A DNA stretch of 64,000 nucleotides from the NCBI GenBank assembly GCA_965230995.1, contig OZ246398.1, positions 309,204-373,203 of the forward strand, given 5' to 3'. Below, piece after piece: positions 28,821-32,325 of this stretch. The position numbers and the translations under genes are program-made. This stretch comes from an uncultured Candidatus Saccharibacteria bacterium (lineage in GTDB: Bacteria > Patescibacteriota > Minisyncoccia > Phycocordibacterales > G965230995). Under the pieces are notes generated by a model. That model made no database searches. It was given only the letters and a program-made list of their open reading frames with translations, and had not been told where the DNA came from. Numbering within the stretch: position 1 is the first letter of the stretch; each line of letters begins with the position of its first letter.

Positions 28821-30998
28821 ATGTACGACGGAAATCGCATAACATATTTTGCAGAAACAGACTCTCGCAACAAGAGAGTTAAATTCGGTATTAAAGCCAA
28901 AGACAGAACGAGGCATGTTTATGTCATTGGAAAAACTGGTATGGGTAAATCGACATTGCTCGAGAATATGGCTATCCAAGATTTACGAAACGGCGAAGGA
29001 ATGGCATTTATCGATCCACACGGCAAGACAGCAGAATTTCTCTTGAATTTCGTACCGGCTCATAGAATAAACGATGTTTTGTATTTTGCTCCATTTGATT
29101 TGGATAATCCAATTTCTTTTAATGTTATGGAAGACGTCGGTCCAGACAAAAGACATCTCGTTGCAAACGGTTTGATGTCTGCTTTCAAAAAACTTTTCGG
29201 TGAAGAAACTTTTTCTGACAGAATGCAGTATATTTTGCAAAATACAATTTTGGCTTTGCTTGAATATCCTGACGCAACACTTCTTGGTATTAACAGAATG
29301 CTTACTGACAAAGATTACAGAGACAAAGTGGTGGCTAACGTTACCGATACATCAGTAAAAGCATATTGGACACAAGAATTTGCATCATACACCGAAAGAT
29401 TTGCAGCAGAAGCAACACCAGCAATCCAGAACAAAATTGGTCAATTTACATCTAACCCACTCATTAGAAATATTGTTGGACAGCCAAAATCATCTTTTGA
29501 CATCAGAAAAATGATGGATGAAGGCAAAATAATCATACTAAACCTCTCAAAAGGAAAAGTGGGTGAGGCAAATGCCAATCTGCTCGGTTCTATGCTCATC
29601 ACCAAAATATATTTGGCAGCAATGTCTCGTGCCGACGTTGGTGAAAAAGAATTATCTGTTTTGCCAAATTTCTATTTATACGTTGACGAATTTCAATCTT
29701 TTGCAAACGAATCTTTTGCAAATATTTTGTCCGAGGCGAGAAAATATAAACTGAATTTAACGATAGCTCACCAGTATATAGAACAAATGTCCGAAGAAGT
29801 CAGGGCAGCGGTTTTTGGAAACGTTGGAACAATGATTTCATTTAGGGTCGGTGCATTTGATGCCGAAATATTGGAAAAAGAATTTGCTCCAGTGTTTACT
29901 ATGGAAGATTTGGTCAATCTCGGTTTTGCACAAATATATTTAAAGCTAATGATTGACGGAATCAGCTCTATGCCTTTTTCGGCGGTTACTCTTCCGCCCA
30001 TAGCCGAAGAAGAAGAAAGTAATCTTGAAAAAATTATCGAAGCGTCGAGAAAATCCTTCTCGGCACCTCGTTCCGTTGTCGAAGCCAATATACTAAAGTG
30101 GCACGAAGAAGGTCAAAAAAATTTTAGCAATAAAAAAGACGACAAAAAAGACAAGGGTAATTCAAGAGGTAGAGGCGAAAAGAAAAAAGAAGAAAAAAGC
30201 GAAGCCACCCCAAACCCATTTCTAGCTCTTGTTAACGGTGATAAAAAAAATACAACTGAAAAAGTCATTGACGATGAAGAAGATTTTGGAATATTTAAAA
30301 AGGATGTAATAGAGGATGAAGAAAAAGAGAAAAAAACTATAGATGAAGACAAAAAAGAAATCCCAAGTATTCAACCTGTAAAAGATACAGCAGTATCAGA
30401 AACGAAACCTGTGCAGGTAGTGCCAAAAAAGATTGAAAAACCAGTAGAGCCAGAAAATGTCCAAGAAAAAAAAGATTCTATACCAAAAGCAAAACAAGAA
30501 ACAAAACAGGAGGACGGGGAGATAAAGAATCTACATAGACCAAAGAACCCCAGCAAAGAAAATGTTAATTCGCTCAAAGAAGCCCTAAAGAGTATTTTAA
30601 AGGAACAACAGCAGGTACAAAAAAAAGACGATAACCAGAGTGCAAATAAAAAAAACCAATTTCAAAATGAACCACAAAAAAATGGCGCTAATTTAAACAC
30701 AGTTTTACCAAAGACAGAAGCAAAGAAAGAAATAGAGAAAGAAGAAATTAAAGACGAAAAAAAAGAAGAACCAAAAAAACCAGAACCAACAGGAAAACAA
30801 AATAGTGAAAAAACACAAAAACCAAACGGTGACTCTACGTTTACTACAGTGGGGAAAATAGACTCCGGTCGGATGGTCGTTTCAAAAGAAATTGAACAGA
30901 GAATCATTATTCAAAAAGAATTAGAAAAAGATAAAAAAATAAGAGAAGTGCCAGAGGAAGTTTTAAGAAAAGTTTTAGACGTAAAAAATGGTCGATAA
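28821..30998 (+). CDS. FtsK/HerA/TraD(VirD4)-like P-loop ATPase with a ~330 aa Lys/Glu-rich low-complexity C-terminal tail
   Basis: Walker A VIGKTGMGKSTL, Walker B LYVDEFQSF, and a T4CP-like NLTIAHQYIEQM...FGNVGTMISFRVG region. No N-terminal TM helix. Confidence 0.65.
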   Translation: MYDGNRITYFAETDSRNKRVKFGIKAKDRTRHVYVIGKTGMGKSTLLENMAIQDLRNGEGMAFIDPHGKTAEFLLNFVPAHRINDVLYFAPFDLDNPISFNVMEDVGPDKRHLVANGLMSAFKKLFGEETFSDRMQYILQNTILALLEYPDATLLGINRMLTDKDYRDKVVANVTDTSVKAYWTQEFASYTERFAAEATPAIQNKIGQFTSNPLIRNIVGQPKSSFDIRKMMDEGKIIILNLSKGKVGEANANLLGSMLITKIYLAAMSRADVGEKELSVLPNFYLYVDEFQSFANESFANILSEARKYKLNLTIAHQYIEQMSEEVRAAVFGNVGTMISFRVGAFDAEILEKEFAPVFTMEDLVNLGFAQIYLKLMIDGISSMPFSAVTLPPIAEEEESNLEKIIEASRKSFSAPRSVVEANILKWHEEGQKNFSNKKDDKKDKGNSRGRGEKKKEEKSEATPNPFLALVNGDKKNTTEKVIDDEEDFGIFKKDVIEDEEKEKKTIDEDKKEIPSIQPVKDTAVSETKPVQVVPKKIEKPVEPENVQEKKDSIPKAKQETKQEDGEIKNLHRPKNPSKENVNSLKEALKSILKEQQQVQKKDDNQSANKKNQFQNEPQKNGANLNTVLPKTEAKKEIEKEEIKDEKKEEPKKPEPTGKQNSEKTQKPNGDSTFTTVGKIDSGRMVVSKEIEQRIIIQKELEKDKKIREVPEEVLRKVLDVKNGR

Positions 30999-32325
30999 GT
31001 TCTTCTTATTTATTTTTTGTTTTGTCTCTCTTTCATTGCCTTTTTCTTTTGTAAAGGCTTTGCAAATTACAGAGATAATGTATGACCACGAAGGAACAGA
31101 TACAAAAAGAGAATGGATTGAGATTTTTAATGATACAGATTCTGGATTAGATATTACCTCTTTCAAATTAAGAGAGGCAGATAGTAACCATTTAATCAAA
31201 GAATACAGAGGAGGAAAGATTGTCCCACAAAACGGTTTTGCTATTATTGCAGATAGTCCTGCCGATATTATTTCAGAAATTCCAGAGAATACTGTCATAT
31301 TAGACAGTGTTTTTTCACTCTCAAATTCTGGTGAAGAACTAGCACTTTTAGATGGCTCAAATAATCAGATTTTTTCTATATTTTATGACCCAACTATAGG
31401 CGGAAATGGTAATGGAAAAACATTACAAAAAATTGATGATGTTTGGGTGGCTAATATTGCAAGTCCAGGTTCTCAGAACGACGTTGCAGATAATAGTCAG
31501 TCAGATATTGACGATACTGATATTGCTGCGGAACCAGAAAAAGAATTGGGCACTACAAATTCAGCGATAATTAAAAAATATGATGATAACTTTAATCTAA
31601 TATTTAATATCCCAGAATTCGTTTATGTTGGTGAAGGGGCGCTGTTTGCAACTAATGCAGTTGATCAATACGGGGACATCATTCCTTTCGTCAATTATTC
31701 AATCAATTTTGGTGATGGATTGTATAGCATGGAGAAGGAAGTCGCTCATATATACAAAAAAACCGGAACTTATCTTTTGTTTGCTGAGGCAAAAACAGAC
31801 TCAAATATTGATTTTGTTAAACAAAAAATAGTCGTGAGGGAATTTCCGGTGGAATTATTGCAAATTGATAATGATTTTTTCCTATCTAATAACAGCAGTT
31901 TTGAATTTAATATTTCTGGTTTTGCTGTGAGCTCAAAGGGGAGAGTCTATAAATTTCCGCCCAATACTTTTTTGGTGCCAAAAGGAAAAATTATTCTCTC
32001 TTCTTCAATTTTAGGTTTTAATCCAGAAAATGATATTTCTGTTATTACGAGCTACGGTAATATCATTTTGTTAAGCCAAAAGACAGAAAACAAAATTTTA
32101 AATACAAAAACAGCAAGTGTTGCCTCTGGGGCAAAAATGAAAGTCTCCGACGAAGAAGAAAGAGACATAGAAAATACTGATATAACCACCGTAAAAGAAG
32201 CCGAAAAACCCTCTCAAACCATTTGGTTTGTGGTGTTTGGATTGATTCTGGCCTGCGGACTTATCCTATTGTATTTTGTCCAAAAGAAGCATAATCTTAT
32301 AGATGAGATAGAAATAAGCTCGTAA
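30988..32325 (+). CDS. secreted lamin-tail-domain (LTD) protein with a C-terminal TM anchor
   Basis: Signal peptide MVDKFFLFIFCFVSLSLPFSFVKA. LTD signature LQITEIMYDHEGTDTKREWIEIFNDTDSGLDITSFKL. C-terminal TM IWFVVFGLILACGLILLYFV. Overlaps the upstream ATPase by 11 nt. Confidence 0.6.
   Translation: MVDKFFLFIFCFVSLSLPFSFVKALQITEIMYDHEGTDTKREWIEIFNDTDSGLDITSFKLREADSNHLIKEYRGGKIVPQNGFAIIADSPADIISEIPENTVILDSVFSLSNSGEELALLDGSNNQIFSIFYDPTIGGNGNGKTLQKIDDVWVANIASPGSQNDVADNSQSDIDDTDIAAEPEKELGTTNSAIIKKYDDNFNLIFNIPEFVYVGEGALFATNAVDQYGDIIPFVNYSINFGDGLYSMEKEVAHIYKKTGTYLLFAEAKTDSNIDFVKQKIVVREFPVELLQIDNDFFLSNNSSFEFNISGFAVSSKGRVYKFPPNTFLVPKGKIILSSSILGFNPENDISVITSYGNIILLSQKTENKILNTKTASVASGAKMKVSDEEERDIENTDITTVKEAEKPSQTIWFVVFGLILACGLILLYFVQKKHNLIDEIEISS

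Follow-up and report, generated by a model that had tools for sequence, protein, structure and literature searches.

A VirD4/TrwB-type coupling protein ATPase without membrane anchor in an envelope gene array of a patescibacterial chromosome

Introduction

A large part of bacterial diversity belongs to the Patescibacteria, and for most of the genes conserved among them no role is known. The window analysed here is a stretch of 64,000 nucleotides (nt) from an uncultured Candidatus Saccharibacteria bacterium (assembly GCA_965230995.1, contig OZ246398.1, positions 309,204 to 373,203 of the forward strand). Two of its genes overlap, one for a P-loop ATPase and one for a surface protein with a lamin-tail domain (LTD), and they raise the question of whether the pair forms a single device for handling DNA or whether the ATPase has a history and a role of its own. 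A first, sequence-only reading had described a HerA/VirD4-like ATPase followed by a secreted LTD protein and had proposed that together they form a module for DNA uptake or translocation or for surface tethering. Both open reading frames (ORFs) lie where that reading had placed them, at 28821-30998 (725 amino acids, aa) and 30988-32325 (445 aa). With a probability of roughly 0.7, the ATPase represents, in the version typical of Paceibacteria, a domesticated type IV coupling protein (T4CP) of the VirD4/TrwB type that occurs throughout the Patescibacteria, and the LTD protein is an optional surface protein.

Catalytic core of the ATPase

The ATPase gene (28821..30998, forward strand) ends in the stop codon TAA at 30996-30998, and its product was identified as a soluble T4CP-type P-loop ATPase from the ORF, from Pfam, from an AlphaFold2 (AF2) model and from Foldseek comparison with the PDB, the last two being the structural basis for the LTD protein as well. 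The motor core, delimited by conservation, AF2 and Foldseek, comprises residues 1-430 (28821..30110) and consists of a nucleotide-binding domain with an inserted all-alpha domain. The Walker A motif or P-loop, G37-K-T-G-M-G-K-S-T45 (28929..28955), is invariant in the 30 homologues over which motif invariance was scored and aligns with the P-loop of TrwB. Walker B, F284-Y-L-Y-V-D-E290 (29670..29690), located by alignment of the homologues, aligns with the TrwB segment LWLFIDE, and its residues F284, Y285, L286, D289 and E290 are invariant. Between the two motifs lies the all-alpha domain, approximately residues 108-233 (29142..29519), recognised from the AF2 helices (H108-126 through H228-233) and from the span of the TrwB_AAD_bind match. 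The predicted local distance difference test score (pLDDT) of the core is mostly 85-95.

In Pfam, TrwB_AAD_bind (of the PF10412/PF02534 T4CP group) matches residues 25-341 with an E value of 8e-8, and TraG-D_C scores 22.1 bits against a cut-off of 22. The NCBIfam match is confined to the P-loop region of TraD-type coupling proteins, and TrwB is the best PDB sequence match of the core, with only the P-loop region aligned. The best Foldseek matches are DotL (6sz9), TrwB (1e9s) and Cag-beta (8dol), each with probability 1.0, and HerA ranks below them. The ATPase possesses the T4CP fold, with a RecA-like nucleotide-binding domain, an all-alpha insertion and intact Walker A and B motifs, as do VirD4, TrwB, TraD, DotL and Cag-beta. 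The Walker motifs and the T4CP assignment of the sequence-only reading are thus borne out, and its double label stands in its VirD4 half. HerA-like is the weaker label, because DotL, TrwB and Cag-beta outrank HerA structurally and the DUF87/HerA central domain (PF01935) stays below its cut-off (22.4 against 23.2 bits) and covers residues 18-74 only. No Pfam match was found in the ATPase to a VirB4-type N-terminal domain or to CagE, TrbE or AAA_10, and no VirB4 structure is among its top 50 Foldseek matches.

SftA, FtsK and SpoIIIE belong to the same ASCE P-loop superfamily; SftA of Bacillus, a soluble motor, is brought to the septum, and FtsK contains a disordered linker of considerable length. 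The window ATPase differs from FtsK and SpoIIIE in that neither FtsK_SpoIIIE (PF01580) nor the gamma (KOPS-binding) domain was matched in Pfam at E <= 0.01, and its fold is nearer to that of the T4CPs. It differs from the T4CPs in turn by lacking their N-terminal transmembrane (TM) domain. With TM segments predicted from the Kyte-Doolittle mean over 19 residues (KD19), none is present in the ATPase, as its maximum is 1.16, and the conserved core begins at residue 1; the absence of an anchor had been noticed in the first reading.

Conservation and origin of the ATPase family

Close relatives of the ATPase all come from metagenome-assembled genomes of Parcubacteria/Paceibacterota. The database relatives number more than 8000, so that the observation of an ATPase accompanied by an LTD gene is not a matter of chance, and an exhaustive search of 1.84 billion representative proteins returned 22,314 relatives at E <= 1e-3 and 5,871 at E <= 1e-30. 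Conservation and synteny were sampled in 80 species-level Paceibacteria loci, and the orthologues there share 72-83% of the core residues with the window ATPase (median 75.9%). The corresponding medians for other proteins of these loci are 51% for MurD, 49% for MurC, 50% for the DUF4015 protein, 59% for pyruvate kinase, 44% for the first GT4 glycosyltransferase and 25% for the LTD protein. By these identities the core of the ATPase is under very strong purifying selection, and its tighter conservation than that of the adjoining peptidoglycan ligases indicates that it likely does something central. Such conservation (about 76% across the class, from the chromosome) also sets it apart from plasmid T4CPs, which in general diverge quickly.

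Relatives with 50-57% identity are found in Saccharimonadia, Microgenomates and Berkelbacteria and carry about 380 additional N-terminal residues, made up of one TM helix followed by DUF8128 (PF26449). This domain was identified in 44 of the 46 N-terminally extended relatives. Neither tblastn nor blastp detected it in the window or the 80 Paceibacteria loci, and its profile found nothing meaningful in the PDB. A split gene, with the anchor encoded separately nearby, was dropped for want of any stand-alone DUF8128 gene in the window or in the Paceibacteria loci.

Outside the Patescibacteria, relatives with 25-39% identity occur on Gram-positive, actinobacterial and archaeal plasmids and in Bacillus phages. 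The protein WP_121549396.1 (886 aa), encoded on the 24.7-kb Bacillus subtilis plasmid NZ_CP032854.1, is about 29% identical to the ATPase core and matches the DUF8128 profile with an E value of 2.7e-23; its gene lies directly 5' of a relaxase gene and of genes for a Tcp-like type IV secretion system (T4SS). DUF8128 is here the N-terminal domain of a Gram-positive plasmid coupling protein. The window ATPase shares the homologous core of these proteins, but lacks both their TM helix and the roughly 380-residue DUF8128 domain, and no relaxase or T4SS gene stands beside it. Because DUF8128 with the ATPase makes up a genuine coupling protein beside a plasmid relaxase, the window ATPase is taken to be a domesticated, N-terminally truncated T4CP. 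On this comparison of domain content, the family descends from DUF8128-containing coupling proteins of monoderm conjugative plasmids, and the Paceibacteria form, including the window ATPase, has lost both the TM helix and DUF8128 and is soluble.

Among the phage proteins, those of Bacillus phages (G gp156 and CP-51-like) are 28-30% identical, and some are mis-annotated as 'lipid A export MsbA'. The PHROG profile phrog_5156 (824 positions, unassigned function) matches the ATPase core at E 2e-57. These plasmid and phage relatives, and the PHROG match, are what would be expected if the gene were the remnant of an integrated conjugative element or prophage without function for the host. Such an origin is nevertheless very improbable for the gene as it now stands: it occupies the same chromosomal position in 80 species and is extremely conserved, its GC content equals that of its flanks, its catalytic motifs are intact, and no integrase, relaxase or T4SS gene lies nearby. 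A remnant is effectively refuted by the conserved synteny and the purifying selection.

The C-terminal tail and its motifs

Behind the core, the ATPase continues in a tail of 295 residues (aa 431-725, 30111..30995), recognised as disordered from its composition and pLDDT, which is below 50 over most of its length. The sequence-only reading had noticed this long, disordered tail rich in Lys and Glu and had given it about 330 residues; its nature is confirmed and its length is corrected. Lys accounts for 20.7%, Glu for 14.2% and Asp for 7.1% of the residues, and with 69 Lys and Arg against 63 Asp and Glu the tail is a near-neutral polyampholyte. A tail of this kind distinguishes the window ATPase from the T4CPs. 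Among orthologues its length varies from 20 to 364 residues (median 179). At the DNA level only short, imperfect A/G-rich repeats were found, and they are weak, so that an origin by recent tandem duplication was rejected.

Two short motifs stand out from the disordered tail. The first, PSKENVNSLKEALKSILK (aa 577-594, 30549..30602), found by alignment and in the AF2 model, has the consensus PSxENLSxLRxAL with L585 and L589 invariant, and falls in a predicted helix (residues 579-601) over which the pLDDT is locally raised. The second, REVPEEVLRKVL (aa 708-719, 30942..30977), is a conserved amphipathic terminal peptide found by pattern match and alignment, with the consensus E-[IV]-P-E-[DE]-V-L-[RK]-x-[IL]-L and L715 invariant; it is likewise predicted by AF2 as a short helix with locally raised confidence. 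Of 79 orthologues, 69 match the strict pattern E-[IVP]-[PS]-x-x-x-[LV]-x-x-[LIVM]-L, the others being truncated genes or near-variants, and the motif ends at a median of 3 residues before the C-terminus. It may resemble DIPxFLRK-type peptides; ftsZ and ftsA, sought for comparison with the FtsZ C-terminal peptide, are absent from the window and from all loci.

In the family as a whole, the terminal peptide differs by clade, with the types E[IV]PEDVLRKxL, ..KPG[EQ]x[IV]x[FL] and F[ED]xP[IL][IL] across the Patescibacteria, and in all clades a disordered spacer, whose length varies, lies between it and the motor. The anchored DUF8128 forms of Patescibacteria also have a disordered tail and end in conserved peptides of their own. 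A role of the C-terminal motif as compensation for the lost TM anchor is therefore unsupported; the terminal peptides are a family trait and not a replacement of the anchor. From these alignments, a lineage-specific terminal peptide, probably for docking, is characteristic of the ATPase family.

The tail suggests how the protein may operate. In TraD the C-terminal tail binds TraM, and in DotL it binds adaptors; the C-terminal extension and conserved peptide of the window ATPase recall both. The ATPase would work as a hexameric motor driven by ATP, and as it has no anchor of its own, its positioning would fall to the flexible tail and to docking of the terminal peptide onto a partner, by analogy with TraD and TraM and with DotL and its adaptors.

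The LTD protein and its linkage to the ATPase

The LTD gene (30988..32325, forward strand; ORF, Pfam and AF2) starts within the end of the ATPase gene, the overlap of 11 nt (30988..30998) being read directly from the sequence, as the first reading had done. No Shine-Dalgarno sequence precedes the start codon of either gene, and from the overlap we infer translational coupling of the two.

An LTD-family gene, detected with a hidden Markov model made from LTD homologues, was found in 13 of the 80 ATPase loci, about 71 of which are informative, i.e. have enough sequence downstream to show the slot after the ATPase; in each of the 13 it lies directly 3' of the ATPase gene. A GT4 gene directly follows the ATPase in 35 loci, and in another 23 the slot is filled by a Wzy-like gene with MurB, an HTH (helix-turn-helix) protein, a toxin-antitoxin pair or genes on the opposite strand. 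The two genes are thus not upheld as a conserved module. Seen from the ATPase, the LTD gene is for the most part not syntenic; seen from the LTD gene, the ATPase always is. All 18 LTD-family hits (17 loci and the window) lie directly 3' of the ATPase, and the three LTD homologues with 30-37% identity are all immediately downstream of it, with a 14-nt overlap, an 11-nt overlap and a 3-nt gap, respectively. No second LTD-family gene was found in the window. The ATPase core is 72-83% identical with or without an LTD gene. Since the LTD gene always follows the ATPase and the ATPase often has no LTD gene, the linkage is one-sided: on gene order, the LTD gene seems to depend on its place behind the ATPase, and the ATPase seems not to depend on the LTD gene. 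The LTD gene is inherited in this slot and has been lost in most lineages. The slot itself looks like an insertion-tolerant site. In individual loci (L008, L024, L029, L038, L053, L069) it holds toxin-antitoxin-like pairs, small ArsR-like HTH genes or opposite-strand coiled-coil genes.

The LTD protein begins with a signal peptide (aa 1-24, 30988..31059), probably cleaved after VKA, as indicated by a hydrophobic peak at residue 7 and an AF2 helix at residues 2-15; this N-terminal signal pattern is conserved in 32 homologues. The lamin-tail domain, a beta-sandwich, follows at residues 25-157 (31060..31458; pLDDT 82-96), with PF00932 matching residues 24-131 at 55.4 bits against a cut-off of 34.3. 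A PKD-like immunoglobulin (Ig) domain at residues 203-284 (31594..31839) was identified from sub-threshold PKD_4/PKD matches in Pfam (22.8 against 27 bits) and from Foldseek, in which it superposes on the PKD domains of the collagenases ColG and ColH with TM-scores of 0.80-0.84 and root-mean-square deviations of 2.4-2.7 A; other Foldseek matches are to generic multi-Ig surface proteins. The third beta-sandwich domain (aa 288-363, 31849..32076) is defined by AF2 strands with pLDDT 89-96, and in one homologue a weak second LTD match covers it. A disordered spacer separates it from the C-terminal TM anchor (aa 412-431, 32221..32280), for which KD19 reaches 2.66 at residue 412 and AF2 predicts a helix at 410-438; the mean pLDDT of the protein is 80. 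The Sec signal, the LTD and the C-terminal TM segment of the sequence-only reading are all present. The short cytoplasmic tail QKKHNLIDEIEISS (32281..32322) was compared among homologues and carries an acidic-hydrophobic end motif. Many TM-bearing homologues end in [DE]-[FWIY]-[EDS]-I-[IVE]-[ED], the window protein having IDEIEISS, and further end peptides in the family (P0122-P0185) are DEIEIIE, DFEIIEV and EWDIEEG. The conservation of this end peptide suggests a cytoplasmic binding partner, and it may contact the ATPase.

The LTD protein shares the beta-sandwich, the PKD-like Ig domain, the signal peptide and the membrane anchor with bacterial LTD surface proteins (PF00932) that contain PKD domains. 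It differs from other bacterial LTD proteins by having no attached nuclease, phosphatase or CotH domain, and is further distinguished by its acidic cytoplasmic end peptide and by its fixed position 3' of a T4CP-type ATPase. The catalytic nuclease domain of ExeM/NucH-type LTD extracellular nucleases is not matched in it; neither Pfam nor AF2 gave any nuclease, DNA-binding or other enzymatic domain. Its assignment to a DNA-handling or nuclease type is not supported, as it consists of three Ig-like beta-sandwiches. The closest homologues are only 37-40% identical, and about half of 75 homologues have the C-terminal TM segment. On the structural model, the protein is best described as a fast-evolving accessory surface protein, whose three Ig-like domains form a stalk that probably serves in adhesion or as an envelope spacer. 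Taken alone, the LTD gene encodes an ordinary variable surface protein.

A dedicated module, with the LTD protein binding DNA outside the cell and the motor drawing it inwards, is to be set against these observations. The 11-nt overlap and the unvarying position of LTD-family genes 3' of the ATPase speak for it, and T4CPs and their FtsK and HerA relatives are DNA translocases. Patescibacteria, moreover, lack de novo nucleotide synthesis (Quinonero-Coronel et al. 2025, PMC12102498). The slot nevertheless has no LTD gene in about 80% of loci, with the ATPase as conserved as elsewhere; the LTD protein has Ig-like domains only, and about half of its homologues lack the TM anchor; no channel, com or pil gene lies within the 64 kb; and a soluble ATPase alone has no means of crossing a membrane. 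Such a module is quite unlikely. A DNA-related role for the ATPase as such is neither shown nor excluded.

Gene neighbourhood

The window belongs to a Paceibacteria (Patescibacteria/CPR) chromosome; it carries chromosomal rRNA genes and is a nearly unbroken same-strand run of envelope genes. Upstream of the ATPase lie ftsW and genes for a priming sugar transferase, secDF, pyruvate kinase, murD and murC. Next to it is the gene for a membrane-anchored, putatively glycoside-hydrolase-like DUF4015 protein (27534..28772, forward strand; PF13200, E 7.8e-87, N-terminal TM peak), whose start is overlapped by 23 nt by a gene for a small membrane protein of 93 aa with two hydrophobic peaks, taken as two TM segments (27275..27556, forward strand). 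The pair is conserved across Paceibacteria: in about 50 related loci a comparable small ORF encoding a 'PFLGFPxxWK' hairpin stands before DUF4015. In the cytoplasmic tail of the small protein, the motif F-[VT]-E-[NS] recurs. Downstream, four consecutive GT4 glycosyltransferase genes (32325..36746, forward strand; Pfam Glycos_transf_1) are followed by further glycosyltransferases, a deacetylase, a carbamoyltransferase, Wzx- and Wzy-like proteins, murB and secA. DUF4015 is on the upstream side of the ATPase in 59 of the 80 loci, often adjacent and in some 1-6 kb away, and an orthologous GT4 gene is downstream in 57.

Between 27275 and 36746 successive genes overlap by 23, 11, 1, 4, 4 and 22 nt, and the single gap, of 48 nt, precedes the ATPase; the 1-nt junction between the LTD and the first GT4 gene is the TAATG at 32323-32327. 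No convincing terminator was found within this interval. A scan for promoters and terminators gave sites no more frequently than in shuffled sequence, and thus bears only on the absence of a strong terminator from the array. The 48-nt spacer (28773-28820) holds a promoter-like element, TTCACG-17 nt-TATACT with a TG extension, which ends 11 nt before the ATG of the ATPase and hints at a near-leaderless internal transcript.

In the 64-kb window no virB4, relaxase, other T4SS, pil or com gene was found, and a tblastn search of the window and 86 related loci gave no match to a VirB4-like protein or relaxase. The ATPase sits in a tightly packed, same-strand array of envelope genes, far from any T4SS, relaxase, pilus or competence gene in sight. 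The earlier rejection of classic conjugation agrees with this, since both the window and the 86 loci are free of virB4, relaxase and other T4SS genes. The com or pil genes suggested by a role in DNA uptake were not encountered, the neighbourhood being one of cell-wall and surface-glycan biosynthesis. Coupling proteins are linked to a T4SS or a relaxase; the window ATPase has no such linkage in the window or the loci, and in lying away from virB4 it resembles the orphan VirD4-type T4CPs of PMC12102498.

In other classes of Patescibacteria, the TM-DUF8128-ATPase orthologues (L085, 1330-4620; L086, 3996-7397) are preceded by a gene with Sigma70_r4/HARE-HTH domains and adjoin the dcw cluster (RsmH, PBP, MraY, FtsW, MurG, FtsQ-like) or secDF. 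The gene downstream of the orthologue in L086 resembles a PHP/EndoQ-type nuclease.

The GT4 genes also bear on a possible role in anti-phage defence, as a HerA-type ATPase or one like mad8 of MADS. Weak PADLOC matches of the ATPase to mad8 (E 1.8e-13) and HerA (E 5e-8) and secondary 'GT4-conflict' matches of the downstream genes point that way. The ATPase matches span the generic P-loop core only, however, the GT4 genes match far better as ordinary Glycos_transf_1, and no nuclease, Sir2 or methylase partner is present; defence genes, moreover, are patchy and fast-evolving, and the ATPase is near-universal and highly conserved (PMC12102498). This reading has hardly any probability and was rejected, the PADLOC and PHROG matches, with the exception of phrog_5156, being confined to the generic core.

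Possible functions of the ATPase

The existence of orphan T4CPs in Patescibacteria is already known from the survey of Quinonero-Coronel et al. 2025 (PMC12102498) and from Wang et al. 2023 (PMC10633639), and the window ATPase almost certainly belongs to that gene set. The survey gives 5,713 VirD4-type T4CP homologues in 2,918 of 3,035 genomes, only 148 of them near virB4, and virB4 in 2,417 genomes. A VirD4-type ATPase is by these figures present in about 96% of Patescibacteria genomes and commoner than the T4SS itself, and the same source states that exaptation of T4CPs in this phylum 'cannot be ruled out'. Within the T4SS cluster of Southlakia no coupling protein could be recognised (PMC10633639). 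The accessible part of PMC12102498 contains no description of a soluble and truncated form in Paceibacteria, of DUF8128, of motifs in the tail, of synteny with DUF4015 and GT4 or of the LTD gene. Nor was a description found in the literature of the descent from DUF8128-type plasmid T4CPs or of the extreme conservation of the ATPase; a literature search gave no paper on DUF8128 and nothing useful on LTD in the candidate phyla radiation or on FtsK in Patescibacteria.

For a domesticated T4CP, one candidate for partner and role is the origin-proximal chromosomal T4SS of Patescibacteria, on which the ATPase would act in trans; this is plausible, at somewhat short of even odds. A translocase independent of the T4SS, with a housekeeping task tied to the envelope or to division, is a more doubtful proposition. 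Formulated along the lines of SftA, it would have a soluble motor whose C-terminal peptide brings it to the machinery of division or of the envelope, where it would move chromosomal DNA or another polymer during division, and is in that form rather unlikely, despite several points in its favour. A T4CP homologue is present in 96% of Patescibacteria genomes and virB4 in 80% (PMC12102498), the core is more conserved than the Mur ligases of the same loci, and the neighbours are murD, murC, DUF4015 and GT4 in Paceibacteria and the dcw cluster (RsmH-PBP-MraY-FtsW-MurG-FtsQ) or secDF in other classes. The layout of linker and terminal peptide also resembles that of division proteins such as FtsZ. 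Against it stand the missing FtsK_SpoIIIE match and gamma domain, the absence of ftsZ and ftsA from the window and every locus, and the possibility that such a context is coincidental in small genomes.

The prevalence above virB4, the conservation, and the dcw, sec and glycan neighbourhoods in two architectures favour the T4SS-independent reading. At its fullest, this would be the exaptation of a conjugation ATPase into the core biology of Paceibacteria, docked by its tail and peptide on the envelope or division machinery, a tentative proposal and improbable as stated. The ATPase would then translocate DNA or protein in step with the assembly of cell wall and surface glycan, and the co-translated LTD stalk would, in certain lineages, offer it a docking site in its acidic cytoplasmic tail. 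If true, a motor from mobile elements would here have been clearly taken over for host housekeeping, giving a T4CP a new task apart from the T4SS, and nearly all Patescibacteria would have a function that is uncharacterised. The soluble form, the origin from a DUF8128-type plasmid coupling protein, the two docking-type tail motifs and the envelope-glycan gene context provide handles on this function.

Several points weigh against the domesticated T4CP as set out here. With T4CP structures the TM-scores reach no more than 0.41-0.47 when normalised to the target, which is modest, and the AF2 core contains a low-confidence stretch at residues 311-367. Conservation of gene order within one class could reflect slow rearrangement and not function, and the context evidence covers the window and the related loci. 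A mirror-tree comparison of LTD and ATPase gave a Spearman coefficient of 0.17, which is uninformative because LTD identities saturate near 25%. In Southlakia the T4SS was reported to be essential and the t4cp homologue non-essential (PMC12102498), which weakens a role with the T4SS in trans; it counts against the housekeeping translocase as well, though FtsK motors are often dispensable too.

Other features of the window

The rRNA genes are unlinked and in an unusual order (4472-8441 and 18534-21136), 23S and 5S coming first and 16S with tRNA-Ile about 10 kb later. The 23S gene has a group I intron at 6489-6772, and between 5S and 16S lie genes for a VWA protein, ftsW, a GT4 glycosyltransferase, a sugar transferase and secDF.

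Between murD and murC, 25395-25905 is occupied by a self-contained cassette. It consists of a perfect sigma-70 promoter (TTGACA-16 nt-TATAAT, 25399-25426), a strong Shine-Dalgarno sequence GAAGGAGGG, an ORF for a Cys/His-rich protein of 105 aa (25503-25820) and a strong terminator (25836-25867). The GC content of the ORF is 0.47-0.51 against 0.33-0.40 in the flanks. The cassette has no Rfam match and no homologue in 88 loci. The MurC ORF, listed as starting at 25774, has probably been extended artefactually and would in truth begin near 25905.

Finally, the GC content falls to 0.26-0.31 over part of the glycosyltransferase cluster (38000-50000), against 0.34-0.45 elsewhere in the window, which is consistent with a variable or horizontally exchanged surface-glycan island.

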